64,000 bases of DNA from an uncultured Alphaproteobacteria bacterium (GTDB taxonomy: Bacteria; Pseudomonadota; Alphaproteobacteria; CAAHEQ01; UBA3637): assembly GCA_944393195.1 (NCBI GenBank), contig CALXZG010000002.1, positions 33,646-97,645 on the forward strand, given 5' to 3'. Below, piece by piece: positions 4,329 to 58,481 of this stretch. The first letter of the stretch is position 1. Each line of letters opens with the position of its first letter. Below the pieces are notes generated by a model. The model was given only the letters and a program-made list of their open reading frames with translations. It was not told the origin of the DNA and ran no database searches. Made by a program: the position numbers and the translations under genes.

Positions 4329-4344
4329 CTTCTCTGAATATTCT

Positions 4345-4377
4345 AAAACCCTCTCCCTGTTGGGAGGTTTCTTTGTG
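4345..4377. repeat. direct-repeat copy 1 (hairpin CCTCCC-loop-GGGAGG plus TTTCTTT); partner at 5861-5891
   Basis: aaaaccctctccctgttgggaggtttctttgtg compared with aaaaccctccctgtcgggaggtttctttatg. The two copies bracket the AT-rich hydrolase segment. Confidence 0.7.
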
Positions 4378-4411
4378 ACAATACTTAACTCACAGTTTCC
4401 GAGCTGAAAAC

Positions 4412-21899: not shown

Positions 21900-22050
21900 T
21901 CATTTGACATCTGTTTGATTAATAATCTATATGTGAAGTGCCCCAAAATCGGAAAAAAGTAAAATAGGGACAGATTCGCGGATTAATGCCGTGATACCGT
22001 TTTTATTGTATGGCGATATGTAAAAAAATCCCCGCGCCGGCGGGGATAAT
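21900..22050 (-). promoter_or_regulatory. conserved 5' module of the pilin-like family (orphan copy, minus orientation)
   Basis: The reverse complement aligns with 58183-58312 and with the reverse complement of 42392-42505 (tttttacatatcgcc ... atcaaacagatgtcaaatgaa). It is preceded by the hairpin terminator of ORF 22085-22480. Confidence 0.7.
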
Positions 22051-42357: not shown

Positions 42358-42596
42358 CTATAACAAAAAAATGTACATTAAATTGTTACACTTCATTTGA
42401 CATCTGTTTGATTAATAATCTATATGTGAACTTCCCCAAAATCAAAAAAAGTAAAATAGGGATAGATTCGCGGACTAATGCCGTGAATAATGTTTTTGTG
42501 TGGTGATATGTAAAAACGCCCTGTTATCACAAAAACTTTCCTGCCCGACAAAAAAGCGTCCCGAAACGGAACGCTTTCTTAACATATCGGCTACGT
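42358..42596 (-). promoter_or_regulatory. family 5' module including the recA terminator; inverted copy of 58005-58346
   Basis: The reverse complement aligns with the region downstream of rpsT apart from a roughly 110-nt repeat insertion there. It contains the palindromic site gtgtaacaatttaatgtacatttttttgttatag (42358-42391). Confidence 0.75.
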
Positions 42597-43631
42597 CTAT
42601 TCGCCATCCGCCGGTACGCCCTCATCATTATCCAACATTTGTTGTGATAAATCCTTGGCATCGTTGCGAATAATTGCCTCAACTTCATCGGCCATAGCCG
42701 GATGCGCCTTTAAATAAGCCCGCGCCGTTTCTCGCCCTTGCCCGATTCGCTCCCCACGGCAAGAAAACCAAGCACCGGCCTTTTCCACAACGCCTGCTTT
42801 AATCCCTAAATCCAACAATTCACCGGTTTTGGAAATTCCTTCACCGTACAGGATATCAAAGTCAACCGTTTTAAACGGCGGTGCAACCTTATTCTTAACA
42901 ATTTTAACCCGCGTCTGATTCCCGATCGTATTGTCCCGATCCTTAATAGCCCCGATCCGCCGAATATCCAATCGAACGGAAGCATAGAATTTTAACGCAT
43001 TACCGCCCGTCGTTGTTTCCGGACTACCGAACATAACCCCTAATTTCATCCGAATCTGATTGATGAAAATGACCAAGGTATTCGCACGCGCCACCGACGC
43101 CGTAATTTTACGCAAAGCCTGACTCATCAGCCGCGCCTGTAACCCCATGTGAGAATCCCCCATTTCGCCTTCCAATTCGGCTTTCGGAACCAACGCCGCC
43201 ACCGAATCCACAACCAAAACATCCAACGTTCCCGACCGTACTAACGTATCCGCGATTTCCAACGCCTGTTCCCCCGTATCCGGCTGAGAAATCAATAAAT
43301 CATCAATCTTAACCCCCAACTTTTTGGCATACGACGGATCCATGGCATGTTCAGCATCGATATAAGCACATACCCCGCCTTTTTTCTGAGCCTCTGCCAC
43401 CACATGCAAAGCCAACGTTGTTTTTCCCGAGCTTTCCGGCCCATAGATTTCCACAATCCGTCCGCGTGGCAGACCACCGATCCCCAAAGCCATATCCAAC
43501 CCCAAAGATCCCGTTGAAATAGCCGGAATTTCCATCGCGTTTTCCTGTTGCCCCAAGCGCATAATGGATCCCTTGCCAAACGCCCGTTCAATCTGTGCCA
43601 AAGCGGCTTCAAGTGCTTTTTCTTTTTCCAT
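42597..43631 (-). CDS. recA: recombinase RecA
   Basis: 344 aa. Contains Walker [10 protein letters not shown] and canonical RecA sequence throughout. Confidence 0.98.
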
Positions 43632-43636
43632 GTTTT

Positions 43637-43651
43637 GTTCCTCTTTTGTTC
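43637..43651. promoter_or_regulatory. GTTC-N7-GTTC motif (alphaproteobacterial LexA-box form) just upstream of recA
   Basis: gttcctcttttgttc, which reads GAAC-N7-GAAC on the recA strand. It lies 6-20 nt before the start codon and overlaps the RBS, which is an atypical position. Confidence 0.35.
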
Positions 43652-43778
43652 GTTTTTGGTAAGGTCACTATATCTTATTTTTTTACCCGACGCAACTTCT
43701 TTTTACATTAGACGATTCAAAAAATTAAAAAGCCCTTTTTCTGTAACGAAATAACCCCCGAAAAACAAAAGCGGACGC

Positions 43779-44372
43779 TTAACGCCCGCTTAAAAAATCA
43801 ACCAATTGACACATGGCTCGCGCTCGATGGGATATTCGGTTTTTAACCGCTTCATCCAAAGCGCCGAACGACGCGTCATACCCTGTCGGCACAAAAATCG
43901 GATCATAGCCGAATAAATGCGTTCCCGTCGCCGTTCGGGCAATGGTACCATCCACCCGACCGGTGAACACATGCTCCGCTCCATCTTCGGTCACCAAAGC
44001 CAAACAACACATAAAATATGCCGACCGATCCGGATTATCCCCGATTAACCGTTGCACAACATCAAACACGGCCGGATACCCGCCATGCTCCGACGCAAAC
44101 CGTGCCGACCGAATCCCCGGCGCATCCCCCATCGCCGCAATACATAATCCGGAATCATCCGCCAACGTGGGCATTCCCGTCTGTTGAAAGCCGGCCCGCG
44201 CCTTAATTAAGGCATTTTCCGCAAAAGTCGTCCCGTTTTCAGGTACATCAACCAACCCGGCCTCTCCCCCGCCGATAACCGTGATACCCAAAGGTGCCAA
44301 CATTGCCCGCACCTCGGCCAACTTATGCGCATTTTGTGTCGCCAACACCAACCGACTAAGCATGCGCCGCAT
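43779..44372 (-). CDS. rdgB: non-canonical purine NTP pyrophosphatase (RdgB/HAM1)
   Basis: 197 aa. Contains [13 protein letters not shown] and the rph-rdgB order. Confidence 0.9.
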
Positions 44373-45084
44373 CCACCAAAGCCGATTTTTGGATCTGAAT
44401 CAACGTTCCGATTCCCTTTTGCGCCAAAGCCAACAAAGCCGTCAATTCCGCCGGTGAAAAAGGCGCATGCTCGGCGGTTCCTTGAACTTCAATCAGATTG
44501 CCATGCCCGTTCATAACAAAATTAGCATCCGTTCCGGCGTTTGAATCCTCCACATAGTCCAAATCCAAAACCGGCACACCCTGTACCACACCACATGAAA
44601 CCGCCGCCACAAAATCCGTAATCGGTAAAGTGGCCCAAGCCTTTTTCGCCCCCACCTTTTGTAAAGCCAAATATAAAGCCACAAAACCACCTGTCACCGA
44701 CGCAGTCCGTGTTCCGCCGTCCGCTTGAATCACATCACAATCAATCTTGACCGTCATACCGTCCAAAGCCCGTAAATCGACACAAGCCCGCAACGCCCGC
44801 GCAATTAAGCGCTGAATTTCCTGCGTCCGCCCCTGCTGCCCTTTTTTAGCCTCCCGCTCCATGCGCGTTCCGGTTGATCGCGGCAACATACCATACTCTG
44901 CCGTCACCCACCCTTGCCCGGTACCCTTCACCCACAAAGGCACCTTTTCTTCTACCGAAGCCGTACACATGACATGCGTATCGCCCCATTTGATGAGGCA
45001 AGATCCCTCGGCATATTTATTGACATTTGGTATAATTTGAACAGAGCGCAATTCATTATCGGCACGTCCGGACGGTCTCGTCAT
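44356..45084 (-). CDS. rph: ribonuclease PH
   Basis: 242 aa. Contains [11 protein letters not shown] and other canonical RNase PH blocks. Confidence 0.95.
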
Positions 45085-45235
45085 TTTTTTCTCCTTTTAA
45101 AAAGCTGATAAGGATTGTCATTGTATGCCTTTTCCCCCGAAAAATCAAGCATTCACTGCCGAAATCCGTAAAAAGTCTTGATTTTTATTCCGAAAGTATT
45201 TACATATATGTATATATCAATATAAGGAAACAAAA

Positions 45236-45832
45236 ATGGCAAAACATCAACATGAATCAAAGCCGGCCGCCGAAACCACGGCCGACAAAGATAAACAAAC
45301 ATCCGCGCCGACCGAAACACCGGCGCAACCCGAACCGAATCCGGCCGAGGAAATCACACACTTAACCGAAGAAGTCGCGCGTTGGAAAGACACCGCGGCC
45401 CGGGCCATGGCCGAAATGGAAAATCTCCGGAAAAGAACCCGGATTGATATCGAAAAAGCGACGCGCTACGCCAACGCTTCTTTTGCCAAAGAATTATTGC
45501 CCGTCGCCGATTGCCTGGAACGTGCCGCCGATTGCGCTCGGCAAGAGTTAGCTCAGGAAAAAGCAACCGGCAAAACCGATTGCACAACCGTTGAAAACCT
45601 ACTGACCGGCGTCGATATGACCTATAAACAATTACAGGACGCCTTGAAAAAACAAGGCATCGAACGCATGGATTGCCTTGATCGGATTTTTGATCCCAAC
45701 TTGCATAAGGTGATTCAGGAAGTCGATACCCCCGATAAACCGGCCGGAACGATTGTCCAAATTCTGCAACCGGGATACACCATCGGCGGCGATCGCGTCC
45801 TGCGCGAAGCAATGGTTGTCGTCGCGAAATAA
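45236..45832 (+). CDS. grpE: nucleotide exchange factor GrpE
   Basis: 198 aa with a GrpE coiled-coil and beta domain. A terminator lies at 45851-45877. Confidence 0.93.
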   Translation: MAKHQHESKPAAETTADKDKQTSAPTETPAQPEPNPAEEITHLTEEVARWKDTAARAMAEMENLRKRTRIDIEKATRYANASFAKELLPVADCLERAADCARQELAQEKATGKTDCTTVENLLTGVDMTYKQLQDALKKQGIERMDCLDRIFDPNLHKVIQEVDTPDKPAGTIVQILQPGYTIGGDRVLREAMVVVAK

Positions 45833-45850
45833 CCGATATCTGATGCATCA

Positions 45851-45877
45851 AGGGGGCGTTTCCGCCCCCTTTTTTTT
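45851..45877 (+). terminator. grpE rho-independent terminator
   Basis: GGGGGCG-TTTC-CGCCCCC followed by T8. Confidence 0.8.
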
Positions 45878-46280
45878 CGTCACCCCTTATTATTAGTCCA
45901 TCATCCCCTATAATTCTACGTCATCCCCGACCCCATAAGTAATCCGTCACCCCCGACTTGATCGGGGGTCTCATGACCATCTTACCCCCTTTTAAATTCC
46001 AACATCCGCTTGCCGGCGGAGACTCCCGCTGCCTTGGCGCGCGGTGTTTCATTGCCTTACGCGAAAAAACAATTCACCGGATTGTTTTTTCTTGCGCGGT
46101 ATCCTTGCGTAAGCGAGGATCTCATGACACGCACTCCATCCCTTTATAAAAAACCCGCACGGCCACCCCCCGCGGGGAAAGGCGGGGCGGCCATAATGAC
46201 CTCTTTGCCCGTGTCGGGGCTCTTAAATGCCCCGACACAAATAATTAAATAGGTAAAGGAGATATTAAAAAATCAGAACC
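45878..46280 (-). repeat. 3' flank plus repeat array of the family, inverted copy of 59742-60255
   Basis: The reverse complement is colinear with the region after gene 58482-59741: ttttttaatatctcctttacctatttaattatttgtgtcggggc, then the roughly 130-nt unit gatcctcgcttacgcaagg...ggcaagcggatgttggaat, then catgagacccccgatcaagtcggggg and GATGACGG modules. Confidence 0.8.
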
Positions 46281-46550
46281 TTAGCGACACAGGGCGTTGA
46301 CGGCGCCGCCGCTCCAACCGACAGACCCGACCGCGCCTGACCAGGGATATACATAATACGAAGCACATCCACTCAATTTTGTTGCTGTCCAATAATGGTT
46401 AGAAAGACTACTATTCAACCATCCACTACAACTACCATAATAATTATTTGCCTTAACTGTTGCTAATTCTTCCGCCGTACACCCGTCTGTCACCGATACC
46501 AAACTCTTCCCGAGGGCTTGACAGAAATTAACTGCTGCATGATACGGCAT
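46281..46550 (-). pseudogene. isolated C-terminal (lectin-like) fragment of the family
   Basis: Encodes PYHAAVNFCQALGKSLVSVTDGCTAEELATVKANNYYGSCSGW...GAVGSVGWSGGAVNALCR. Family homology stops abruptly at about 46550. Confidence 0.8.
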
Positions 46551-47090
46551 ATAATTCGTTGGTTCCGGGGGAGAGGGGAGAAGGTAATGACGAATCCGAA
46601 GTTGAAGTGTGTGAAGAGGGTGAATATCGGTTATCGACAGGAGAGTGTGTGATAGATTCACATCCGGAATGTGGTGATGGAGAGTTTTATAATAAATGGA
46701 TATCTTCTTCCTGTATTGCGTGTCCAACGGAAGGAAATCCGGTCGAAATTAGTGTATCGGATGTGGAAGATAGTTGTGAAAAATGTGCGGGGGCGCAGTA
46801 TGGTGGGTATTATCCTAATTATTGCGTCTATTGTCCATCCGGTGTTGTGTGTGGTGATCAATGTTGTGGGGAAGGACAAATGTGTCAATATAGTTCCGGT
46901 ACCTATACCTGTGTATCGGAATTAGGTGACGGCGAATGTTGGACAAATGATGATTGTGCCGGAGCCAATCAATATTGTCAAAATGGTGGAAGTTGTGAAG
47001 TGACGATTGGGACGTGTGAAACGATCAGTAGTACAGCTGTGATAATTAACGGAAAAGAGTATACGGCTTCAACGGATTATGTATCTTACC
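46551..47090 (+). pseudogene. isolated middle (Cys-rich) fragment of the family on the opposite strand
   Basis: Encodes NSLVPGERGEGNDESEVEVCEEGEYRLSTGECV...EYTASTDYVSYQAA. It abuts the minus-strand C-terminal fragment head-to-head at 46550/46551. It ends at the YHAA-equivalent point, where it joins a repeat unit through the shared string ggcagcgg. Confidence 0.8.
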
Positions 47091-47232
47091 AGGCAGCGGG
47101 AGTCGCCGCCGGCAAGCGGATGTTGGAATTGGAATGGAGTAAGATGGTCATGAGACCCCCGATCAAGTCGGGGATGACGGATTACTTATGGGGTCGGGGA
47201 TGACGGACTAATGATAAGGGAATGGCGGAAAA
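47091..47232 (+). repeat. distal repeat block (ggcagcgggagtcgccgccggcaagcggatgttggaattgga...catgagacccccgatcaagtcggggatgacgg...)
   Basis: Same orientation as 60117-60230 and inverted relative to 45905-46025. Confidence 0.8.
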
Positions 47233-47310
47233 CAAAATGGGGATGGGGGAAGATGTGAGATAAAAAAATCCCCCGGGGAGGCCGGGGGATGGAGAAAATG
47301 ACAGAAAACG

Positions 47311-47766
47311 TTAGTCTTCTTTGTCGTTGTTTTGAATCAACGTGTAGATTGCGTCGGCATCTTTGGCATGGCGCAGGTCGGCGGCGACGGTTTCGTCCCG
47401 CAACAGGCGCGACAAGCGAGCCAATGCTTTCAAATGATCGGCGCCGGCTTCTTCCGGAACCAGCAACAAAAACACGAGGTCGACGGGTTTATCGTCAACG
47501 GATTCAAAATCGACGGGTGTTGTCCGCACAAATGCACAGAAAATTTTATTCAGCGCATTCAAACGGGTATGCGGTAATGCCACGCCATGGCCGATACCGG
47601 TTGTCCCGAGGCGTTCGCGTTCAATCAAGGCATCCAAGATGAGGCGTTCGTCCAGTCCCGTTTTTTGAGCGGCCAAGCCAGCCAGCGTTTCCAGCAATTG
47701 TTTTTTACTACCAACGGACGCATCGCAAATAACCGCGTCTTTGGGTAAAATATCGATAATTTTCAT
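47311..47766 (-). CDS. ptsN: PTS IIA-Ntr regulatory protein
   Basis: 151 aa. Contains the GIGHGVALPH active-site His motif. A terminator hairpin plus T7 lies at 47266-47292 on the minus strand. Confidence 0.9.
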   Translation of the reverse strand: MKIIDILPKDAVICDASVGSKKQLLETLAGLAAQKTGLDERLILDALIERERLGTTGIGHGVALPHTRLNALNKIFCAFVRTTPVDFESVDDKPVDLVFLLLVPEEAGADHLKALARLSRLLRDETVAADLRHAKDADAIYTLIQNNDKED

Positions 47767-47775
47767 GGGGCAAAC

Positions 47776-48324
47776 CTATTTATGTTTCGGATCAACCCAA
47801 CCGATATTGCCGTCCGCCCGACGATAGACCATATTCAAACCGCCGTGTGCCGTATTTTTAAACATTAAAGCCGGCAAACCCGCCAAGTCCATACGCATAA
47901 CAGCCGCGCTGACCGTACAGACGGGTAATTCGGTTTGCATTTCCGCAATGATAATCGGTGCGTCGCCGACTTCTTCTTTATCCGCTTCGGACGCAATAAC
48001 GGACATATCAACCATTTCGACCGGTTGCGCTTTGTGATCCGTCAGTTTGTTTTTATATTTCCGCAGTTGGCGGGCGATTTTGGCAACGGCATCGTCAAAG
48101 GAAGCGTATGCATCCGTTGAAGTACCCGTGGCCCGAACGATTGTCCCGGAAGCCGGATGAACCGTGATTTCCGTTTTAACGTCAGCGCCTTCTTTCGTTA
48201 CGCGAATATCGGCGTTAACGGCTTCTTCAAAGTATTTGGCGACAGCCGCATCCAATGCTTTTTCGGCATAATCGCGCAGGTTTTCGCCTAAATTAATTTG
48301 TTGTCCAGTAATAATAATTTGCAT
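47776..48324 (-). CDS. hpf: ribosome hibernation promoting factor (long form)
   Basis: 182 aa. The N-terminus MQIIITGQQINLGENLRDYAEKAL is a sigma54-modulation-protein fold. Sits in the hpf-ptsN order. Confidence 0.9.
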   Translation of the reverse strand: MQIIITGQQINLGENLRDYAEKALDAAVAKYFEEAVNADIRVTKEGADVKTEITVHPASGTIVRATGTSTDAYASFDDAVAKIARQLRKYKNKLTDHKAQPVEMVDMSVIASEADKEEVGDAPIIIAEMQTELPVCTVSAAVMRMDLAGLPALMFKNTAHGGLNMVYRRADGNIGWVDPKHK

Positions 48325-48399
48325 TGTTCAGTCTTTCTTGTTAAAATTCAAAATACAAACTTTACCATAGCTTTTTTTATTGCCGGTGTCAAGGAAAAC

Positions 48400-49473
48400 A
48401 TGAAAACTTTACAAAAACCGTTCGGAATTTACATTCATTGGCCTTATTGTTTATCCAAGTGTCCCTATTGCGATTTTGCCAGTTGTCCGGCCGCGGACTT
48501 TGACGAAGCGGCTTTGTGGCCGGGGTATGAGCGGGATATTCGGGCTTTACCGGAAGAACGGCCGATAACGAGTATTTTCTTTGGGGGTGGGACACCGTCC
48601 TTAATGTCGGCATCGTTTTGTCGGCGGATGTTGGATTTGATTCGGGCGCGGCATCCGGTGGCAGATGATTGCGAAATAACGATGGAGGCCAATCCCGACG
48701 CGATCGATATGGACAAGATGGTGGCTTTTCGGGAAGCGGGTGTGAATCGCCTGTCTATCGGTGTGCAATCGTTGCTCACGACAGACTTACGTTTTTTGGG
48801 GCGGCGACACGGACGAGATTCGGCTTTGGCACGGGTGGCGGAAGCGGTGCGTGCCTTTCCGGAGGTCAGTATGGATTTGATTTACGCACGGCCACATCAG
48901 ACGTTAGCGGCTTGGCAGATCGAATTGACGGAGGCTTTGGCGTTGGGGTTGCAACATTATTCGTTGTATCAGTTGACAATTGAAGAGGGGACGGCTTTTG
49001 CACGGCGGGGTGTTCAGCCGGCAGATGAGGAAATGGCGGCGGAATTATATCGGTTGACGGATCGGTTAATGGCGGCAGCGGGTATTCCGGCCTATGAGGT
49101 GTCGAACTATGCGGCGCCGGGGCATGAATGTCGGCACAACCTAACGTATTGGCGGGGAGAGGATTATGGTGCGGTCGGGCCGGCCGCGCACGGGCGAATC
49201 GGGTTGTGGGCCGTGCAACATCCGGCCTCGGTCGCAGAATGGTTGCGCGTTGGGGCAGAGCGGGTAAAATTAACGCCGGTCGAAAAGCAGGAGGAACAGT
49301 TAATCATGGGAATTCGGTTGCGGCAAGAGGGGTATCCGTCGGCCGGATTGTCCCGTGAGGCGGTAGCAGACGCAATCCGGCGGCGGTGGGTGGATGAGCG
49401 GGACGGTCGTTTATTCCCGACGTTAAGCGGTGTATTGATGTTAAATCAGTTGACACTTCTATTAATGCCTTAA
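48400..49473 (+). CDS. hemW: radical SAM heme chaperone HemW
   Basis: Start at the ATG at 48400. Contains the CPYCDF radical SAM cluster motif and GGGTPS. Confidence 0.88.
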   Translation: MKTLQKPFGIYIHWPYCLSKCPYCDFASCPAADFDEAALWPGYERDIRALPEERPITSIFFGGGTPSLMSASFCRRMLDLIRARHPVADDCEITMEANPDAIDMDKMVAFREAGVNRLSIGVQSLLTTDLRFLGRRHGRDSALARVAEAVRAFPEVSMDLIYARPHQTLAAWQIELTEALALGLQHYSLYQLTIEEGTAFARRGVQPADEEMAAELYRLTDRLMAAAGIPAYEVSNYAAPGHECRHNLTYWRGEDYGAVGPAAHGRIGLWAVQHPASVAEWLRVGAERVKLTPVEKQEEQLIMGIRLRQEGYPSAGLSREAVADAIRRRWVDERDGRLFPTLSGVLMLNQLTLLLMP

Positions 49474-49588
49474 CGGGTATCGGGGTAGTGGATTTTTTTA
49501 TGAAATAGGGGTTGACAGGCCTGTTATTTTGTGCTAATCTGAAAGTATAAGAAAAAAATATTGACAAAAATTGTTAGGAGACCTACGT

Positions 49589-49765
49589 ATGATGACATCA
49601 AAAGATTTTTCGTCGAGTGAAACGATGGTTTATGCGAGTGGCTCTGACAATCGCAACAATGAGACGCGGCGGTATCCGTCGCCGAAACGTTTGGCGGAAA
49701 CGGGTATTCGGTTCGTAAAGGAAGAGGCTAAGGTTTCGGCCCCGGTTCCGGAAACGTCTCGATAA
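49589..49765 (+). CDS. hypothetical small protein
   Basis: 58 aa from ATG 49589 with an AGGAGA Shine-Dalgarno. An upstream TTGACA-17-TAATCT promoter lies at about 49513. The protein has no motif. Confidence 0.45.
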   Translation: MMTSKDFSSSETMVYASGSDNRNNETRRYPSPKRLAETGIRFVKEEAKVSAPVPETSR

Positions 49766-49779
49766 TCCGAGAGACCGTT

Positions 49780-50958
49780 ATGATACGGCGGATTATTTTT
49801 ATTTCTTTCATGATAGGTATTTGTTGTGCCGGCTTTTTTATATACCGGTCGGTAACGGCACCGCGGGTATCGGTTGTTATGGCGACATACAATCGGGCTC
49901 ATTTATTACCGCGGGCGATCGAGTCGGTCTTGCGCCAGACTTTTTCGGATTTTGAATTCATTATTATTGATGACGGATCAACGGATGAAACGGCAGATGT
50001 TGTTCGGTACTTTCAAAATCGGGATCGGCGGATTGTCTTTTTACAAAACAAGAAAAACAAAGGATTGGTTGCTTCGTTAAATCGCGGATTGGCGGCGGCG
50101 CGGGGGCGGTATATTGCGCGAATTGACGATGATGATGAAATGTTGCGGGAGCGGTTGGCGCGACAGGTGGCTTATTTTGAAGAGCATCCGGAGGCGACAG
50201 TTTTGGCGACGGGGTATTACACGTACAAATATAAAACAAGGGCGGATGGGGTTAAAGTTCGATGGCGGCATCATTTGGGATGTCCGGCACCGACGGAGCA
50301 GGTATTTGTGAATATGATGCGGGCGACGGGGGGGGTGGCTCATCCGACGGTGATGATTGACGGCGCATACTTGGCGGCACGTGATATTATGTATGATCCG
50401 GATTTTAAAAGTGCGGAAGATTACAAGCTATGGTATGATATTTTATCAACGGGCGGGGAGATTCATTGTTTACAGGATCCTTTGATAGAGTATACGCGGG
50501 CGGGGGATAATCCTTCTTCTTTTTATCGGGAGCAAAACAGTAACACGCGGCGCATTCAGGTTTTATTTTTGTCGTTATTGGCGGATAATGCGGTTTTTTT
50601 GAACGAACAACACGAATGTGAAATTTTTCGGGAGTTGGTAAAGCAGAATAGTGTCAAAAGGGTTGTGGATCAAGAACGCTTGCTCAATAAAATAAAAGAG
50701 AACTGTCCGCCGGATGAGGTTGACTCTGTTTTGGTGGAGCATCCGGAATGGCGGGATTACGTTATTTTTACGGATGGGGGAAAGCGGTTGTATCGGTTTA
50801 AAAAGCCAAAACAGACGGCTCGGGTGGATTTATTGCCCGGTGGGCGATTGGTGGTTGCATGGGACGAATGGGCGCCGGAAACTTTTTTATGCGATTCGGC
50901 AATGACAAAATGTATATTGGAAGGTCAAAATGACGCAGGAACGACAAAAACAAATTGA
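49780..50958 (+). CDS. family 2 glycosyltransferase with extra C-terminal domain
   Basis: 392 aa. Contains VSVVMATYNRAHLL, IIIDDGSTD and a DDDD acidic motif. Confidence 0.85.
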   Translation: MIRRIIFISFMIGICCAGFFIYRSVTAPRVSVVMATYNRAHLLPRAIESVLRQTFSDFEFIIIDDGSTDETADVVRYFQNRDRRIVFLQNKKNKGLVASLNRGLAAARGRYIARIDDDDEMLRERLARQVAYFEEHPEATVLATGYYTYKYKTRADGVKVRWRHHLGCPAPTEQVFVNMMRATGGVAHPTVMIDGAYLAARDIMYDPDFKSAEDYKLWYDILSTGGEIHCLQDPLIEYTRAGDNPSSFYREQNSNTRRIQVLFLSLLADNAVFLNEQHECEIFRELVKQNSVKRVVDQERLLNKIKENCPPDEVDSVLVEHPEWRDYVIFTDGGKRLYRFKKPKQTARVDLLPGGRLVVAWDEWAPETFLCDSAMTKCILEGQNDAGTTKTN

Positions 50959-51121
50959 AAAAATCATTCTCTTTTTATCGATTATAGCCGGTATTGTGAT
51001 CGGGTGTGCCGGCGGGTTTGAGATGATGAGTCGCTATGTTCAAGCGAGGGAGGATGTTGTGGTATCGACGCGGCCGGCGGCTTCTGCTTTATATCAATGG
51101 GATATGGGACGCGAGCGTTGA
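50930..51121 (+). CDS. hypothetical small membrane protein
   Basis: 63 aa with one hydrophobic helix. Overlaps the GT2 gene's 3' end. Confidence 0.35.
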   Translation: MTQERQKQIEKIILFLSIIAGIVIGCAGGFEMMSRYVQAREDVVVSTRPAASALYQWDMGRER

Positions 51122-51193
51122 TAAAATAAATTTAACGGTCGGTGCAAAAAAGGCTTGCTTTTTTTTTGTATTCGGAGTATAAAGAAATGCGCG

Positions 51194-51269
<76 letters not shown>

Positions 51270-51380
51270 TTTTAACAGCCTCCATCGAGGCTGTTTTTTT
51301 ATGGAAAATCCGGTAAATTGAGACTATTTTTGAAAAAAATGCCTTTTCGGAGAAAGGGATGTTTTTGATATGGTTGATAA

Positions 51381-51584
51381 ATCAAACAGATGTCAAATGA
51401 AGTGTAACAATTTAATGTTCATTAAAATGTTATAAAATTATGTATCACAAAAGTGAAAACAAAGCAAGAAGAAAATATTTATATTATAAAGAGTTCCTGT
51501 TCATTTGGTTAAAAGTCATGTAAGGTGCAAAAAGTATAACAAAAAAGGGAACATTTTTTTGTTATAGTTGAAAAGGAGCGATAA
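51381..51584 (+). promoter_or_regulatory. 5' control region of pilin-like gene A
   Basis: Conserved block atcaaacagatgtcaaatgaagtgtaacaatttaatgt (possible ATGTCA-17-TAATGT promoter). Palindromic site 1 lies at 51402-51435 and palindromic site 2 at 51534-51567, the latter directly before the AAAGGAG RBS. Confidence 0.5.
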
Positions 51585-52994
51585 ATGACTGAAACAAAAA
51601 ACAAAAACGGGAAAAGTGGTGTGTATCAAAATAGTGATTTAGGGGCATCGTGTGTGTGTCATAAGACCCCCGATCAGGTCGGGGATGACGGTTTAACAGT
51701 AGGGAGTGCGTGTTCAAAGATCCCCGCTTTCGCAGGGATGACGGGTAGTAACCGCGGGGAGCGGGGACGGAGCATGGTTGAGATGTTGGGCGTTCTGGCG
51801 GTCATGGGCGTATTGTCGATCGGCGGTGTGGCCGGGTATCGGTATGCGATCGATAAAATGAATGCGAATGACATTATCAATGAAGTGAAAAAAAGAGCCG
51901 TGACGGCGAGTCAACAACGCATCTTGGGACACGATATTAATTTATCGGAATACGGGGATAATGGTCGGATTAAGGGAATTCATGCCGTTACAGCGACAAA
52001 CGATTATGCGGGGGATAAAGGGTTCTTTGCGTTGACGGTATCAAATATACCGCAACGGGTATGCGATGACATTCTGAAACAGGATTGGAATATGCCGGTG
52101 GAAACAGCGGTCGGAGGTGTTGTGGTTGATGATGATACAGCCTGCGCCGCCGGGGATAATGAAATGTTGTTTGCGTTTGCGAATACGTTGGACAGCTCTC
52201 TGGTTCCGGGAGAAGGGGGAGAAGATGACGGGGATGAAGAGGAAGTACAGGAATGCGCCGAGGGTGAATATCGGTTATCGACAGGGGAATGTGTGACGGA
52301 TTCACATCCGGAATGTGGTGATGGGGAGTTTTATAATGGACTCACGGATTCTTGTACAGCCTGTCCGACGGAAGGAAATCCTGTCCATATTTATTCGTCG
52401 GATATGGAAGATACGTGTGAAAAATGTACGGGGTCGCGGTATGGTGGACCTTATCCCAGCTATTGTGTCTATTGTCCGGATGGTGTTACCTGTGGTGATC
52501 AATGTTGTGGGGAAGACGAAATGTGTCAACGCGATACAAGTTCTTGGCCATATACATTTACCTGTGTCTCTACATTAGGGGAAGGAGAATGTTTGACGAA
52601 TGATGATTGTGTAGATAATCAATATTGTCGGAATAGTTATGGTTGTGAAGTGACGGTTGGGACATGTACGGATATTAGTAGTACGCCGGTAGAGATTAAC
52701 GGAACAGAATACACAGCGTCAACGGGTTCTATGCTGTATCATGCGGCGGAGAATTTCTGTGATGCGCTTGGGAAGCGTTTAGCACCGGTGACAGACGGAT
52801 GTACGGCGGAAGAATTGGCAGCGGTTAAAGCAAATGGTTCAGGTAGTTGTTCGGGATGGGCACAGACGACGGGTGAGCGTTATTGGACAGCAACCAAATT
52901 AAGCGGATGCGCTTCGTATTATGTATGGAGTAGTAGTTCAGGCGCGGTCGGGTCTGTCGGTTGGAACGGCGGCAACTACGCCCTGTGTCGCTAA
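51585..52994 (+). CDS. modular type-IV-pilin-like protein with Cys-rich repeats and lectin-like C-terminal module (copy A; leader expanded by a repeat insertion)
   Basis: 469 aa. The class III signal-like core G-RSMVEMLGVLAVMGVLSIGGVAGY lies at aa 61-85. It is followed by a conserved head domain, an acidic linker, a region with about 25 Cys, and a C-terminal YHAAENFC...W...ALCR. Confidence 0.8.
   Translation: MTETKNKNGKSGVYQNSDLGASCVCHKTPDQVGDDGLTVGSACSKIPAFAGMTGSNRGERGRSMVEMLGVLAVMGVLSIGGVAGYRYAIDKMNANDIINEVKKRAVTASQQRILGHDINLSEYGDNGRIKGIHAVTATNDYAGDKGFFALTVSNIPQRVCDDILKQDWNMPVETAVGGVVVDDDTACAAGDNEMLFAFANTLDSSLVPGEGGEDDGDEEEVQECAEGEYRLSTGECVTDSHPECGDGEFYNGLTDSCTACPTEGNPVHIYSSDMEDTCEKCTGSRYGGPYPSYCVYCPDGVTCGDQCCGEDEMCQRDTSSWPYTFTCVSTLGEGECLTNDDCVDNQYCRNSYGCEVTVGTCTDISSTPVEINGTEYTASTGSMLYHAAENFCDALGKRLAPVTDGCTAEELAAVKANGSGSCSGWAQTTGERYWTATKLSGCASYYVWSSSSGAVGSVGWNGGNYALCR
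51612..51770 (+). repeat. 159-nt in-frame insertion of palindromic mini-repeats inside the leader of gene A
   Basis: Absent from copy B (MTEIKMENG-LSMVE). It contains agacccccgatcaggtcggggatgacgg and agatccccgctttcgcagggatgacgg, both found in intergenic copies elsewhere in the window. Confidence 0.8.
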
Positions 52995-53170
52995 GGTTCC
53001 CGCTTTTTGTGTGATAGGGCAAGCGAAACGGGGTGAAGATAGCTCTTCACCCCGTTTCTTGCCCCCTTTTTATCCCATGGAGCCTCTTCTGTATTCCGTG
53101 GAACAACGTTAGTATATACACCAATATGGTGTGTTGTCAATATCAAAACAATTTTGTTTCATTTTTTTTG

Positions 53171-53300
53171 AGGGAGTGAGATGGTCATAAGATTCCCGCT
53201 TTCGCGGGAATGACGGACTAATAATAAGGGATGACGGGATTATAATGGGATGCATTAAAAGCCCCCCCCCGAAACAAGTCCGGGGGTGACGAGGTTATCA
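53171..53300. repeat. cluster of GATGACGG-type palindromic mini-repeats
   Basis: agattcccgctttcgcgggaatgacggactaataataagggatgacgggattataatggg ... ccccccccgaaacaagtccgggggtgacg. Confidence 0.75.
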
Positions 53301-53314
53301 TAAAGGATAACACA

Positions 53315-54268
53315 CTACTTATCCAGCAGGCGGGTCATATCCAAGAATTTATCGTGGCGGCAACGTACCAGTTCATCCGGTTTAAAGCTTAACCATTTAT
53401 CCAGATGACGGTCAAGCGCGTCGGCGACGGCCGTCATTGTTTCCGTCGGAAAGCGGTGAGCCCCGCCAATCGGTTCCGGAACAATTTCGTCAATAATCCC
53501 CAAGCGAAGCAAATCCTGTGCCGTTAAGTTTAAAATTTCGGCCGCTTTGGGGGCAAATTTGAAATCTTTCCATAAAATAGAGGCGCAACCTTCCGGTGAA
53601 ATCACGGAATAAACGGAATTTTCAAGCATAATCACGCTATTACCCGCAGCCAAAGCAATGGCTCCGCCGGAACCGCCTTCACCGATAATACAGGCGACAA
53701 GCGGAACGCGCAAATCCAAGCAGGCTTCCGTGGCGGTGGCAATGGCTTGACCCTGACCACGTTCTTCGCCTTCCAACCCCGGAAAAGCGCCAGCCGTATC
53801 CACCAACGTTATGACGGGAACACCGAATTGTTCGGCCAGTTTCATTAAGCGGATGGCTTTACGGTAGCCTTCCGGTTTAGCCATCCCGAAATTGTGTTCC
53901 AAACGGGATTCGGTGTCGTGGCCTTTTTCGTGACCGATAACCATAACGGTTCGGCCTTTCAGTTTTGCAAAACCGCCGATGATGGCTTTATCTTCGGCAA
54001 ACTGACGATCGCCGGACAAAACGCAAAAATCGGTAAAAACGGTGTTGATATAGTCCCGTGTATGGGGCCGATTTTCGTGGCGGGCAACATTGGCTTTCTG
54101 CCACGGGGTCAGGTTTTTATACGCTTGGGTTAATGCTTTTTCGCGTTTGGCGGACAAGCGTTCCAATTCGGCGGCGATATCAATGCCGCGGGTGGATTGA
54201 TTGAGTTTCAAGGCCTCAATCTTCGCATCAATTTCCATTAAATTTTGTTCAAAGTCTAAATATTGCAT
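53315..54268 (-). CDS. accA: acetyl-CoA carboxylase carboxyltransferase alpha subunit
   Basis: 317 aa with canonical AccA sequence (DTAGAFPG, GEGGSGGALA). Confidence 0.96.
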   Translation of the reverse strand: MQYLDFEQNLMEIDAKIEALKLNQSTRGIDIAAELERLSAKREKALTQAYKNLTPWQKANVARHENRPHTRDYINTVFTDFCVLSGDRQFAEDKAIIGGFAKLKGRTVMVIGHEKGHDTESRLEHNFGMAKPEGYRKAIRLMKLAEQFGVPVITLVDTAGAFPGLEGEERGQGQAIATATEACLDLRVPLVACIIGEGGSGGAIALAAGNSVIMLENSVYSVISPEGCASILWKDFKFAPKAAEILNLTAQDLLRLGIIDEIVPEPIGGAHRFPTETMTAVADALDRHLDKWLSFKPDELVRCRHDKFLDMTRLLDK

Positions 54269-54367
54269 TATGGATCCTTTTCAATTTGATTTTTTGAATT
54301 ATACAAGGTATAATCAAAAATGTCCAGCCTTTCCGGCTATTTGTCATAAAAAGGAAACACGAAAGTC

Positions 54368-54703
54368 ATGTCCGATATTGAAAAAGTCTTTATTTTAGCC
54401 GCTACATTGTGGGTAACGGCGGTTGGTTTTATTATTTTTTCTTGGTTGTTAGAAGTCCGGCGGCAACAGGCGTTAGTCTTTATCGCACGGCGGTTGGAAT
54501 CGATTGACAAGCGGTTGCGGCGTCTGACGGGAGAGGTTCGGCCGGAGCGAAAAGCATCTGTCGAACAGAGTGCCGATTCGGCAGAGGCTCAGACGGCGAT
54601 CCCCGTGGTTGATATTCCGAAGAATATGCCCTTATCGGCCTATGAATCGGTGACGTTGCCGGATAATGCGGCGGTTCATTTTGTTGATGAGCATGCGTCT
54701 TAA
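54368..54703 (+). CDS. hypothetical membrane protein
   Basis: 111 aa with one N-terminal hydrophobic helix. Confidence 0.45.
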   Translation: MSDIEKVFILAATLWVTAVGFIIFSWLLEVRRQQALVFIARRLESIDKRLRRLTGEVRPERKASVEQSADSAEAQTAIPVVDIPKNMPLSAYESVTLPDNAAVHFVDEHAS

Positions 54704-56507
54704 ATTTTGGTATTCGATGTTGTGTTGGCTATGCCTCGGGGTGGGGAGTGTGTCGGTATCGGCAACCCCCGCGACGGGAATTGCCATGCGGGGAGAGCCA
54801 AAGTATTCCGACGGATTTGAGGCTTTTGACTATGTTAATCCCGATGCACCGAAAGGCGGTGTGTTGCGGCAGGCGGCGTTATCGACGTTTGACACGTTTA
54901 ATCCTTTTACGGTGATAGGGATGGCGGCACCGGGTGTCGGGTTGTTGTACGATACCTTAATGAAGCCGAGTTTGGATGAGCCGTTTTCTTTATACGGGTT
55001 AATTGCCGAACGGATCGATGTGGCGGCAGACCGATCACGGGTCACTTTTTTCCTGAATCCGGCAGCGCGGTTTTCGGACGGAACCCCGATTACGGCGGCA
55101 GACGTTGTTTTTTCTTTTGAAAAACTACGGGATGAAGGGTTACCGATGTATCGGGCGTATTATCGGGATGTGGTTCGGGTGTCGGCACCGGATGATCGGA
55201 CGGTGGTCTTTGATTTACCGGCGGACGGCGGAAATCGGGAGCTGCCTTTGATTTTGGGAGAGTTACCTGTTGTCCCGCGTCATTTTTGGGAAAATCGGGA
55301 TTGGGGGGCGACAACGCTTGACAAGCCGATCGGCAGCGGACCGTATGTGGTTGAGTCGGTCGAAGCCGGACGATCCGTTGTATATCGGCGGAATCCGAAT
55401 TATTGGGCGGCGGATTTAAATGTCAATCGCGGGGCATATAATTTTGATGTGATTCGGTTTGATGTGTATCGGGACACAACGGTTGCGGTGGAGGCTTTTA
55501 AAGCCGGATTGATTGATATTCGGTTTGAAAATGAAGCCAAAAAATGGGCGGCGGCTTTGATGTCTGAACCGGTTCAAAAAGGAAAAATTGTGGCGCGGGC
55601 TTTTCCGCATCAAATGCCGGCGGGGATGCAAGGGTTTGTTTTTAACCTGCGGCGGCCTTTGTTTCGGGACAGGCGCGTTCGGGAGGCATTGGCCTATGCT
55701 TTTGATTTTGATTGGGTAAATCGGCATTTGTTTCATGGGGCGTACCGGCGGACGAACAGTTTTTTTGATAATTCTTTTTTAGCCGCCGAGGGGTTACCAT
55801 CAACACGGGAGTTGGCGTTGTTAGATCCGTGGCGGGATATGCTTCCGCCAGAGGTGTTTGGGGAAGCTTATCGAGCGCCACAGCCGGATTCGGGGGATAT
55901 ACGACCGGCTTTGGAAAAAGCATTGGCTTTGTTGGGGGAGGCCGGATGGCATGTTCAAGACGGTGTGTTACGCAATGCGGCGGGGGAGGCTTTTCGGTTT
56001 GAGATTTTAATTGATGCACCGAGTGCGGGCACATGGGAACGTGTTATTTTACCGTTTACCAATCGGTTAAAACGGTTGGGGATTGAAGCGGTTGTTCGGG
56101 CCGTGGATGTGATTCAATACAAAACGCGGTTGGATCAGTTTGATTTTGACATGATTGTGGCGGTTTGGGGGCAATCACTATCCCCGGGGAATGAACAACG
56201 GTATTTTTGGGCCTCGGCGGCGGCAGAAACAGCCGGTTCGATGAATTATGCGGGATTTCAACATCCGGCGGCGGACGCGTTGATCGAAGCCATTGTGCGG
56301 GCGCGGACGAATGAAGAGCTTGTAGCAGCAGTACGGGCGTTGGATCGGGTTTTGTTATCTTATCATATTGTGATTCCGCAATGGCATATGCCGGAGCATC
56401 GTTATTTATATCAGGCGCATATCGGGGTTCCGGCAACGGTTCCGATGAAAGGAGCGGATCCGATGTTGTGGTGGGATAAACGGATGGAAAAGGCAGTTCA
56501 AAAATAA
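54693..56507 (+). CDS. ABC transporter substrate-binding protein, family 5 (peptide/YejA-like)
   Basis: Signal peptide MRLKFWYSMLCWLCLGVGSVSVSA followed by a long SBP_bac_5-like body. The start could be 54687 or 54693. Confidence 0.8.
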   Translation: MRLKFWYSMLCWLCLGVGSVSVSATPATGIAMRGEPKYSDGFEAFDYVNPDAPKGGVLRQAALSTFDTFNPFTVIGMAAPGVGLLYDTLMKPSLDEPFSLYGLIAERIDVAADRSRVTFFLNPAARFSDGTPITAADVVFSFEKLRDEGLPMYRAYYRDVVRVSAPDDRTVVFDLPADGGNRELPLILGELPVVPRHFWENRDWGATTLDKPIGSGPYVVESVEAGRSVVYRRNPNYWAADLNVNRGAYNFDVIRFDVYRDTTVAVEAFKAGLIDIRFENEAKKWAAALMSEPVQKGKIVARAFPHQMPAGMQGFVFNLRRPLFRDRRVREALAYAFDFDWVNRHLFHGAYRRTNSFFDNSFLAAEGLPSTRELALLDPWRDMLPPEVFGEAYRAPQPDSGDIRPALEKALALLGEAGWHVQDGVLRNAAGEAFRFEILIDAPSAGTWERVILPFTNRLKRLGIEAVVRAVDVIQYKTRLDQFDFDMIVAVWGQSLSPGNEQRYFWASAAAETAGSMNYAGFQHPAADALIEAIVRARTNEELVAAVRALDRVLLSYHIVIPQWHMPEHRYLYQAHIGVPATVPMKGADPMLWWDKRMEKAVQK

Positions 56508-56578
56508 GGTGTATTTTATACTTGCTTTCTATCGGAAAAGCAGTTATAACAGAAAAAGCAGATGAAAAGGAAAAGCAG

Positions 56579-57271
56579 ATGATGCGCAAATGGATATGGA
56601 TAATCGGTTTAGGGTGCGGTATCGGTTTGGGAATGCCGGTGCGGGCACAACTGGCTTTTTGGAATTATGACGACATGGGGCGGGAATCGGCTATTCCGGC
56701 CGAATGTGACGGTGTGTTTGATGAAACGTTAGGGGGCGTTTTTATGCCTTCCGCCGATGAATTATACGAACGCGGGGAAGCTTTTTTATTGGCGGCCGAT
56801 CCGATTGAACGGAACAAAGCCGGTTATTGTTTGATTGCGGCGGCTTTACAGGGAAATGTTCCGGCTCAGTATCGGGTGGCACAATTATATAATAAGGGTA
56901 TAGTGTTGCCGCAGGATGAATTGAGCGCTTACCGGTGGGCTTTTACGGCATCGTTGAACGGTCATGAGGAAGCGGATCGGTTGGCTTTGTTGTTGGAGCG
57001 TTTTTTAACAACGGAAGATATTCGGACGGCGACGGAATCGGTGTCGTCTTTATTACCGGATATTGAAGCCCGGTATCGTCGAGAGTTGGAAGAACAGGCG
57101 GACAAGGTATCGGAAAAACAGGAAGAATTGGATAAAATCAATGCCGAAATCGATCGGATTTTAGGTATTGACACGTCAAAGATTGTGACACAGAAACCCG
57201 AAACACCGGTGGCGGTTGTTCCGGCCGGGAAAAAGGGCGCTGTTTTTTCGGAGGCCGATCGGCCCAAATAG
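56579..57271 (+). CDS. secreted Sel1-like repeat protein with C-terminal coiled coil
   Basis: Signal peptide MMRKWIWIIGLGCGIGLGMPVRA. Contains Sel1-type repeats (AALQGNVPAQYRVAQLYNKG). Confidence 0.6.
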   Translation: MMRKWIWIIGLGCGIGLGMPVRAQLAFWNYDDMGRESAIPAECDGVFDETLGGVFMPSADELYERGEAFLLAADPIERNKAGYCLIAAALQGNVPAQYRVAQLYNKGIVLPQDELSAYRWAFTASLNGHEEADRLALLLERFLTTEDIRTATESVSSLLPDIEARYRRELEEQADKVSEKQEELDKINAEIDRILGIDTSKIVTQKPETPVAVVPAGKKGAVFSEADRPK

Positions 57272-57280
57272 AGGCATAAC

Positions 57281-57634
57281 ATGCGGTATGCGGCAATCTT
57301 GTTTTTAGTTATCGGCTTGATTGGCGGGGTGGTTGCGGCTTTTTTACCCGGGACGGCGGATGTCCCTTTAATGGAGGGAATGGTTGTTTCGGATGACGGG
57401 GAAAGTTTTGATTTTGACACGCCGGCGGGACAAATTTTAACGGTAACGGCGGTAACGGCGGCTACACCGGATCGGGTGCGGGCATTCTATCAGAAAACAT
57501 TGCCGGCTTTGGGATGGACGCAACAACGGGACGGATTTTTTACCCGGGACGGGGACGAATTGACGTTAACAATTGACCGGCAAAATCAACAAACAACCGT
57601 TTCTTTTGAGATGATGTTGACGGGAACACGATAA
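57281..57634 (+). CDS. hypothetical exported protein
   Basis: 117 aa with an N-terminal hydrophobic helix. No motif recognised. Confidence 0.5.
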   Translation: MRYAAILFLVIGLIGGVVAAFLPGTADVPLMEGMVVSDDGESFDFDTPAGQILTVTAVTAATPDRVRAFYQKTLPALGWTQQRDGFFTRDGDELTLTIDRQNQQTTVSFEMMLTGTR

Positions 57635-57722
57635 GAATTTGAAAAAAATACTTGACTTTTAGTATTTTGAGGTGTATAAAAAAGACCTCTGTTTTTTTTA
57701 ATATCATTCATTGGGGAATAAA

Positions 57723-57989
57723 ATGGCCAATATCAAGTCTGCTAAAACGCGTATCAAACGCAACAAAAAACGTGAAAAAATCAATCTGGATCGCTTGAAC
57801 GCTGTCCGGACGGAAGAAAAGAAGGCGCGCAAAGCAATTGCCGCCGGTGATAAAGAAGCGGCTAAAACGGCCGTGAAATCTGCCGAAGCGGCGTTGGCTC
57901 GCGCCGCCGGTAAAGGGACTGTTCATAAAAAGACGGCTTCCCGTCATACATCTCGGTTGGTGCAAGCGTTGAAAAAGTTATTCAGCTAA
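57723..57989 (+). CDS. rpsT: 30S ribosomal protein S20
   Basis: Start at the ATG at 57723 (MANIKSAKTRIKRNKK). Confidence 0.95.
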   Translation: MANIKSAKTRIKRNKKREKINLDRLNAVRTEEKKARKAIAAGDKEAAKTAVKSAEAALARAAGKGTVHKKTASRHTSRLVQALKKLFS

Positions 57990-58010
57990 GCTTGACGATT
58001 TTTTTAGAAA

Positions 58011-58038
58011 AGCGTTCCGTTTCGGGACGCTTTTTTTT
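58011..58038 (+). terminator. rpsT terminator, sequence-identical to the recA terminator (42550-42577, minus strand)
   Basis: AGCGTTCCG-TTT-CGGGACGCT followed by T8. This is the first element of the duplicated family 5' module. Confidence 0.8.
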
Positions 58039-58481
58039 GTTGGGCAGGAAAGTTTTTGTGATAACAGGGCGTTGTTATTTTTCCGTCATCCCTGCGCAGG
58101 CGGGGATTTTTGGACGCACAACCACACCTTTAAAAGACCCCCGATCAGGTCGGGGGTGACAGGGTACTTGTGGATCGGGGATTTTTTTACATATCGCCAT
58201 ACAATAGAAACGGTATTCACGGCATTAGTCCGTGAATCTGTCCCTATTTTACTTTTTTCTGATTTTGGGTCACTCCCAATCTAAATGATTTATCAAACAG
58301 ATGTCAAATGAAGTGTAACAATTTAATGTACCTTAAAATGTTACAGTTTTTATAACATAATCAGGAATGCGATGCAAGTCCTTTTTTATTAAGAATTAAT
58401 CGGTTATCGATTTGTCATTTTTTGTCCAAACTGTAACACAAAAGGGTACATTTTTGTGTTACAGTTCGAAAGGAGTATTAA
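58039..58481 (+). promoter_or_regulatory. 5' control region of pilin-like gene B
   Basis: Conserved module 58183-58346, with a roughly 110-nt mini-repeat insertion at 58072-58182. Site 1 lies at 58313-58346. Site 2, ctgtaacacaaaagggtacatttttgtgttacag, lies at 58431-58464 (13-bp arms), followed by the AAAGGAG RBS. Confidence 0.5.

Follow-up and report, generated by a model that had tools for sequence, protein, structure and literature searches.

Copies of a gene family encoding predicted pilin-like surface proteins are scattered in both orientations through a 64,000-nt stretch of DNA from an uncultured alphaproteobacterium (GenBank assembly GCA_944393195.1, contig CALXZG010000002.1, positions 33,646–97,645; referred to here as the window), and the comparison with conspecific metagenome assemblies supports the conclusion that these copies recombine and invert housekeeping DNA in this species. 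One pair of copies, belonging to the truncated cassette C (minus strand) and the full-length gene B (plus strand), forms an inverted repeat (42,358–42,596 and 58,005–58,346) that brackets the genes from recA through rpsT and that was proposed in the initial annotation to act as an inversion switch resembling the sap system of Campylobacter fetus. This inverted repeat is real and lies far above chance. The process behind the observed rearrangements is probably ordinary homologous recombination among dispersed paralogues, with no dedicated switch.

The two arms of the repeat are inverted copies of the 5′ module of the family, as had been claimed. In a global alignment, the reverse complement of 42,358–42,596 matches 58,005–58,346 at 200 of 219 positions, with 19 mismatches; the high identity estimated earlier by eye (85–90 %) therefore stands, the measured value being 91.3 %. 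The alignment contains a single gap, opposite a 112-nt block at 58,072–58,183 (predicted as an insertion of about 110 nt) that is present in the B copy of the module (M_B) only, is missing from the C copy (M_C) and consists of small palindromic repeats resembling miniature inverted-repeat transposable elements (MITEs; repeat family D4). The longest exact runs shared by the arms are 40 nt (ATCAAACAGATGTCAAATGAAGTGTAACAATTTAATGTAC), 32 nt (GGGCAGGAAAGTTTTTGTGATAACAGGGCGTT) and 28 nt (AAAGCGTTCCGTTTCGGGACGCTTTTTT), the last of which is the shared terminator hairpin with its T-run, correctly recognized before, which closes recA on one side and rpsT on the other. The arms were also recovered independently by a repeat search of the window (as I16, I21 and I22). 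Outside them, coding homology between C and B is found, as noted earlier, at 72–79 % identity over approximately 0.75 kb, with exact runs of at most 23 nt (arm I1, 41,538–41,938/59,300–59,700, 401 nt, 79 %; arm I5, 41,950–42,135/59,094–59,279, 72 %). However, it does not form a continuous extension of the repeat, as C lacks any equivalent of approximately 580 nt of B (58,347–58,923), which comprise the rest of the 5′ untranslated region, the leader and the N-domain codons.

The C/B pair is not unique. At least six family copies are scattered in the window, which includes four copies of the module (X, C, A and B; 87–91 % identity) and five coding copies or fragments, and because copies and decayed fragments lie in both orientations, inverted pairs arise automatically. 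An inverted repeat as such is thus an ordinary product of a dispersed gene family. The module also occurs at 21,736–22,035 (minus) and 51,368–51,564 (plus), and the window contains many further inverted pairs formed by family sequence, several of which are better substrates for recombination than C/B, including 45,988–46,122/60,029–60,163 (96 % identity) and 46,167–46,272/59,751–59,856 (98 %). The conserved family unit includes approximately 0.5 kb of 3′ flank, which in gene B spans 59,742–60,271 (plus) and consists partly of MITE-like repeats. This flank matches the region at 45,904–46,272, in fragment D', with 89–98 % identity (I7, I12, I18 and I19) and exact runs of up to 89 and 80 nt, so that, as judged from these matches, the D'/B flanks should be better recombination substrates than the C/B pair.

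Evidence that family copies have in fact recombined comes from other strains. Exact-protein look-ups with RecA, UppS, RpsT, AccA, Hpf, TrxB, ParB and the M23 peptidase yielded contigs from approximately 25 other metagenome samples that are 97–99.9 % identical to the window in housekeeping genes; all comparisons are between consensus assemblies of different samples. These conspecific assemblies (97–99 % identical) show at least three arrangements. Type 1 is that of the window, and its uppS–C–module–recA junction is present in at least nine samples, while the side carrying fragments D' and D and gene A is read only in L001–L003 and L128. Type 3 (ERZ16268158 and ERZ16268159; L014, L015 and L129) corresponds to type 1 from uppS to grpE; in place of the D' and D of the window, it carries a full-length gene of 445 aa following grpE and a continuous gene ahead of ptsN. 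Type 2 is a single 34,160-nt contig (L005 with L021, ERZ24773541) with a coverage of approximately 6.5×. It starts with a family gene, followed by grpE–rph–rdgB–recA and a module with start codon and repeat-bearing leader from which the coding sequence is deleted. Next come a 3′ flank, the segments 47,091→51,386 (ptsN to tRNA-Thr) and 21,946→41,455 (dnaE to uppS), a 128-nt scar of 3′ flank and the segment 53,228→59,121 (accA, rpsT, module and B).

Block K (42,597–45,832; recA, rdgB, rph and grpE) is inverted relative to block P in type-2 strains (L005, L007 and L010), as seen in ERZ24773541 and ERZ28613591, and in L007 and L010, type-2 sequence is found on both sides of it. Block P (47,311–51,269) contains ptsN, hpf, a radical-SAM (HemW-like) gene, a glycosyltransferase gene and tRNA-Thr, and in type 2 it stands between recA and dnaE (L005 and L127). 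Both K and P have moved to the opposite side of the 19.5-kb dnaE–uppS block, and uppS directly abuts block Q (53,315–57,989; accA to rpsT). The signed block order is (S,K,P) in type 1 vs (−K,P,S) in type 2, a difference that needs at least three inversions; neither one inversion alone nor an excision followed by reintegration could be made to turn type 2 into type 1.

All six breakpoints between types 1 and 2 (21,946, ~41,455, ~42,519, 45,906–47,091, 51,386–53,228 and 60,271) lie at family copies, and the family marks every rearrangement breakpoint found in the origin-proximal region. The type-2 junction 51386|21946 was found base for base in an assembly from an independent study (L127). In three type-2 samples, homology at trxB ends at 60,271, the edge of the B 3′ flank, with a methyltransferase block beyond. 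Past this point, L135, L136 and L139 carry trxB followed by a gene for a CcrM-like N6/N4 DNA methyltransferase with a RAMA domain, a gene for a SIMPL-domain protein and further genes, with no gene B. A further contig, L023 (positions 1–4494; ERZ16268226), represents a fourth arrangement at the A breakpoint, in which neither gene A nor uppS stands before accA, their place being taken by a 770-aa ORF and by genes for a DUF805 protein and a PAS histidine kinase.

The earlier expectation that recombination between family copies would flip housekeeping DNA therefore holds for the recA–grpE segment, which is inverted in type 2, but not for recA through rpsT as a whole, for which no flip was seen. 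Nor did the block appear in both orientations among relatives, the check that had been suggested: the parental junctions are kept in all six contigs that extend from rpsT as far as the module or the start of the gene (L021, L023–L026 and L030), where rpsT is followed by the module and, wherever reached, by B on the plus strand, and in all 10 RecA-anchored places shown, where recA is followed by the module. Neither a recA–module–full B–trxB junction nor an rpsT–module–C–uppS junction occurs among the retrieved contigs, few of which are long and most of which break at repeats, so that a rare flip could escape notice. The accA–rpsT block is mostly an isolated contig of approximately 5 kb broken at both repeats, and the look-ups with the M23 peptidase and ParB returned only contigs ending inside the X module. 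The family copies thus explain the fragmentation of metagenome-assembled genomes (MAGs) at these loci.

GC skew, which is strong in this genome, bears on the direction of the changes. Within the window, the cumulative skew turns at 15,296, 31,407 and 46,511. The first turn is a minimum between cysS and dnaQ, beside gidB–parAB, and marks the putative origin; the second lies between thrS and rplS; and the third is a cumulative minimum approximately 30 nt from the D'|D junction. Since genes on both strands between 31.4 and 46.5 kb are shifted towards negative values relative to their neighbours, this segment of approximately 15 kb appears to be inverted on its replichore, its reversed skew placing rplS–trmD–rimM–rpsP–ffh and recA–rdgB–rph on the lagging strand. 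The type-2 orientation of the recA block fits the skew, and the window orientation is therefore probably derived. The skew of 46.5–58 kb agrees with the present orientation.

In addition to being rearranged, family copies show signs of sequence exchange. The window allele of cassette C and the common allele differ at only two positions in nt 1–650 (0.3 %) and at 53 positions in the last 217 nt (651–867; 24.4 %), a pattern that, from the distribution of differences, reads as a sharp replacement tract; no donor of the 3′ tract was identified. In a third allele of the C locus (ERZ16268162; L017 and L009), uppS has a longer neighbour, probably a full-length gene. At the B locus, L030 carries a mosaic gene built of segments with 85–100 % identity, some of them nearer to A than to B, whereas its flanks match the window at approximately 98 %. 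Between strains, the identity of alleles is 78–83 % at the E, F and D sites and 78–94 % for family loci overall, as against 98–99 % for their flanks. The family is the most variable part of otherwise 98–99 % identical genomes.

Gene B (58,482–59,741, plus) encodes the full-length protein of 419 aa. Its leader is of the prepilin type (G|LSMVE) and is followed by a pilin-like N domain, a Cys-rich region and a C domain resembling C-type lectins. In an alignment of 20 homologues, the leader G|(R/L)SMVEMLGVLA is invariant or nearly so, with G at its end, E at +5 and a hydrophobic N-terminal helix, although the Pfam N_methyl and TIGR02532 models score below their curated cut-offs (12.4 vs 21.2 bits and 10.8 vs 16.3 bits, respectively). 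The AlphaFold model (mean pLDDT of 78) consists of a helix at residues 11–61 with a small sheet, a disordered linker (152–168), a Cys-rich beta region and a compact C domain. In Foldseek searches, the best matches of the N domain were TcpA (8uhf) and an enterotoxigenic Escherichia coli (ETEC) type IVb pilin (9iuf), with E-values of 1.5e-3 to 4e-3, a probability of 1.0 and target TM-scores of 0.41–0.47, and the C domain matched C-type lectin or lectin-like domains, to which the sequence-profile match is weak. The family protein is thus predicted, with moderate confidence, to be a prepilin-type surface protein with a type IVb pilin-like N domain. A homologue search returned 320 proteins, covered by no curated Pfam or NCBIfam model and bearing uninformative names, and species-representative genomes contain at least 539 family loci. 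Of the 80 that were listed, nearly all belong to MAGs of uncultured Alphaproteobacteria from human, rabbit and ruminant guts or rumen, often with several loci per genome. Scanning of species-representative genome contigs with B alone gave no matches, and scanning of the same genomes with the family alignment gave other species only (at most 57 % identity), with no synteny to a close relative. Exact-sequence look-ups of B (P0001) and of P0007 gave no entry.

Three copies in the window are truncated. Cassette C (41,491–42,357, minus) is a 288-aa ORF in which the module is fused straight to the C-terminal half (Cys-rich and lectin-like), the leader and pilin N domain being deleted. Fragment D' (45,904–46,551, minus), at whose site type-2 and type-3 strains carry a full-length gene, comprises the last ~90 codons of a family gene with its 3′ flank, equivalent to B 59,474–60,229. 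Head to head with it, fragment D (46,542–47,221, plus) joins the Cys-rich region (B 58,924–59,491) to the 3′ flank (60,117–60,229). C and D both begin at the equivalent of B ~58,924, the inter-domain linker, but the three copies have no common start site, C starting within GAGATATTATTTGC, D at ATACGGCAT and D' at the equivalent of B 59,474. The internal jump of D to the 3′ flank occurs at a GGCAG microhomology, and the D'|D join at an ATACG microhomology. These copies are most simply explained as deletion remnants of genes that were once full length, and D'|D as a deletion across a divergent pair of full genes, although no contig spans such a pair. C itself is probably a decayed gene; the locus next to recA exists in three allelic states, one of them probably full length. 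At the rpsT locus of L024, approximately 190 nt (window 58,401–58,589) are missing, including the second palindromic element of the module, the ribosome-binding site (RBS), the start codon and the first ~36 codons (break at L024 5503), and this allele is another decayed state of a family locus.

The proposed mechanism would start from a lineage-specific multigene family in which the C and B arms are paralogous copies of a conserved upstream module, copies and decayed fragments being strewn in both orientations over the origin-proximal 60 kb. General, presumably RecA-dependent, homologous recombination would act between the copies. Gene conversion would swap patches of sequence, yielding mosaic alleles and a diversified adhesin-like C-terminal half, and occasional resolution as crossovers would invert or relocate the housekeeping blocks in between, alongside some illegitimate joins. 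The C/B pair would then be one possible substrate of many, a passive consequence with no sign of use. The analysis shows the repeat, the family and its fold, the rearrangements between strains with their breakpoints at family copies, the skew anomaly and the replacement tracts; we infer from these by which pathway the copies recombine, in what order the events took place and that no dedicated switch is involved. Among the 10 previously unassigned window ORFs, no domain match to a recombinase (integrase, resolvase or IS110-type) was found, and the remaining window ORFs read as housekeeping genes. Inversions between dispersed paralogues are known for rrn operons, insertion sequence (IS) copies and the surface-gene families of Mycoplasma and Helicobacter. 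As in those cases, strain-to-strain inversions here reuse repeats as breakpoints and reversed GC skew marks flipped segments, although the repeats here are an uncharacterised adhesin-like gene family and six breakpoints in approximately 40 kb beside a putative origin are unusually dense. The system belongs with the already known recombining surface-protein gene families, while the pilin–lectin family itself is uncharacterised.

Several observations weigh against this interpretation. The junction 51386|21946 joins two upstream sides head to head, which a single homologous crossover cannot yield, and the left boundary of the skew segment, at 31.4 kb, showed no remnant of the family. Both the D'|D junction and the one inside D were formed at microhomologies of 5 nt and hence appear to be illegitimate rather than homologous events. 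The intact C ORF, with its low pN/pS, could mean that C is kept up as a donor cassette. Finally, consensus assemblies reveal that rearrangements occurred, not their rate, and a fast programmed process is compatible with them.

Among the alternatives, the one first proposed takes its model from C. fetus sap, an S-layer system with a single promoter on an invertible element and tightly clustered cassettes. Like the present family, it comprises several homologous surface-protein genes whose conserved 5′ regions lie in both orientations, recombination in the conserved parts inverting the DNA between them. Here, crossing over of C (minus) with B (plus) would invert the recA-to-rpsT segment and place the B promoter and N domain on the C-terminal half of C. 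The pair is suitably built, being inverted with the 3′ ends outward, and C lacks exactly the leader and N domain and begins at the domain linker, so that crossing over within the coding arms would, in principle, restore C to full length; the module arms share the exact runs of 40, 32 and 28 nt, and another recA-containing block is inverted in some strains. The switch logic is nevertheless unsupported. Instead of one shared promoter, every full-length copy (A and B in the window, gene E in other strains) has its own module, a putative promoter as judged from sequence, and essential housekeeping genes lie between the copies. Identity in the coding arms is just 72–79 %, with short exact runs (≤23 nt), a crossover in the modules would alter no protein, and the recA-adjacent locus exists in three states of decay. 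With the recombinant junctions in no assembly, rpsT–module–B(+) and recA–module constant, and the skew of 46.5–58 kb fitting the present orientation, such a switch is very improbable. Gene conversion as in Neisseria pilE/pilS, in which C, D and D' would be maintained as silent donors feeding variable C-terminal sequence non-reciprocally to the expressed full-length genes, for programmed adhesin or antigenic variation, and the inversions would be by-products, is still unlikely but has more in its favour. The Neisseria system combines a constant pilin N-terminal part with partial cassettes lacking the N-terminal coding region, its pilS loci have no promoter or upstream module, and a G-quadruplex (G4) lies upstream of the expression locus. 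The pilin-type protein, the copies without leader and N domain (C and D sharing their start at the linker), and the sharp, patchy replacement tracts with mosaic alleles seen between strains recall that system; the C ORF is intact in nine assemblies, with an in-frame indel and a pN/pS of 0.32, and family loci (78–94 %) are far more divergent than their flanks (98–99 %). Against this, there are several full-length copies with their own modules, competent for expression by sequence, rather than one expression locus. C retains its module, D and D' resemble wreckage (illegitimate junctions and an internal deletion), and the corresponding sites of other strains are occupied either by full-length genes or by an empty remnant. 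No G4 motif (G3+ N1-7 ×4) was found in or beside family copies, the only window matches being at 17,144, 44,907 and 62,057, and no donor of the C tract was identified. The variable part also differs, being a separate Cys-rich and lectin-like module here and the globular head of the pilin in Neisseria. A broader version, in which RecA-dependent exchange between dispersed full-length genes and N-domain-less cassettes would provide a gut commensal with genuine high-frequency variation, is likewise a minor possibility. In it, the Cys-rich and lectin-like module of the type IVb pilin-like protein would be re-assorted continually and essential blocks beside the replication origin, including recA, flipped as a tolerated side effect, which would make the system a hybrid of pilE/pilS and sap in an uncultured lineage of human-gut Alphaproteobacteria.

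Site-specific recombination of the shufflon, Piv or Xer type could instead act at dyads of the module (TTGATAAATCAA or TGTAACA-N18-TGTTACA), with a recombinase encoded elsewhere. Its appeal lies in the junction 51386|21946, which falls exactly on the 12-bp near-palindrome TTGATAAATCAA (L005 8474–8481; L127 ~4943–4950) at the 5′ edge of the module core and is identical in two independent samples, a symmetric site making a head-to-head join easy. The X locus of L034 and L035 also departs from the window right after a TGTAACA...TGTTACA element, and the type IVb pilin-like protein recalls the shufflon target PilV (PMC5430464). In R64/IncI plasmids, the shufflon acts on PilV, a minor type IVb pilin adhesin; it forms a compact array in which the sfx sites are 19 bp long, and the tyrosine recombinase Rci is encoded next to it (PMC5430464, PMC9045228). 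The similarity extends to a constant N-terminal part with alternative C-terminal segments and to head-to-head partial ORFs that hamper assembly, but in the window there is neither an sfx-like common site nor an adjacent recombinase, no recombinase family match having been obtained among the previously unassigned ORFs, and the copies are dispersed over at least 40 kb. The sequence TTGATnnATCAA occurs at one module copy only in the window, the other breakpoints fall in coding sequence, 3′ flanks or microhomologies with no common site, and the point of fusion to the constant part would not be the same for C as for D'. Moreover, the palindromic elements are absent upstream of family genes at 73 loci of other species, and homologous recombination also produces a switch in divergence at conserved elements. 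Taken together, a site-specific system appears quite unlikely. It is harder still to credit that the strain differences are assembly chimeras at repeats, with no real rearrangement. Short-read metagenome contigs do usually break at family copies, and the coverage of the type-2 contig is only ~6.5×. However, the 51386|21946 and uppS–scar–accA junctions contain no long shared repeat to mislead an assembler, the former is reproduced base for base in an independent study, the trxB junction is present in three samples, and GC skew independently marks 46.5 kb as a boundary.

The family is abundant in uncultured gut and rumen Alphaproteobacteria and, according to the structural models, joins a pilin anchor to a lectin-like head. 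It thereby offers a concrete candidate both for adhesins that bind the host or glycans and for what makes strains of this little-studied gut lineage individual. If exchange is frequent within clones, this would be a new example of recombinational surface variation outside the classical pathogens.

The module is composed of a terminator, an upstream part, an invariant core of ~40 nt, two TGTAACA-N18-TGTTACA palindromic elements and an RBS. M_B (58,005–58,481, plus) contains the rpsT terminator hairpin, the upstream part, the core (58,290–58,329), both palindromic elements (58,314–58,345 and 58,432–58,463) and the RBS, the repeat arm being its portion 58,005–58,346. M_C (42,358–42,596, minus), whose downstream part is truncated, has a single palindromic element besides the recA terminator hairpin, the upstream part and the 40-nt core. 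Orphan module X (21,736–22,035, minus) has no coding part and lies between the M23 peptidase gene and a 131-aa ORF adjoining dnaE; it matches the A module (I3) and the B module (I9) at 91 % each. Directly 3′ of tRNA-Thr, gene A and its module (51,368–52,994, plus) carry the core and downstream part only (51,368–51,584), followed by a coding sequence for 469 aa (51,585–52,994), and its N-domain sequence is identical to that of B over runs as long as 56 nt. Variants of the palindromic elements occur at 21,732, 21,864, 42,357, 51,401 and 51,533. These elements may be candidate operator sites or RNA hairpins, and RNA folding of 58,280–58,500 gives z = −4.1. As none were found upstream of family genes in other species (73 loci), they appear to be specific to this species group. 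A comparison of the module with Rfam gave no family matches, a sigma-70 promoter scan of its sense strand gave nothing convincing, and scans of JGI metagenomes with the 38-nt and 23-nt module core gave no matches. A sigma-54 promoter in the second palindromic element was considered and rejected by eye, there being no GC at −12.

In the leader of gene A, MITE-like repeats are inserted in frame (51,650–51,765), adding approximately 50 residues before G|RSMVE, and leader insertions with a 'GMT' motif are also present in the homologues P0011, P0078 and P0091. Such in-frame palindromic insertions recall the Rickettsia palindromic elements. MITE-like palindromic repeats (e.g. GTCATGAGACCCCCGATCAAGTCGGGGATGAC and CCCGCTTTCGCGGGAATGACG) also occur at 45.9–46.3, 47.1–47.2, 53.18, 58.07–58.18 and 59.95–60.27 kb. 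Elsewhere in the window, two adjacent ORFs of 462 and 590 aa (26,095–27,483 and 27,493–29,265), with no Pfam match, share repeated motifs such as 'YPYTCHH(I/L)VP..GG.N', which are reminiscent of an HNH-like nuclease signature.

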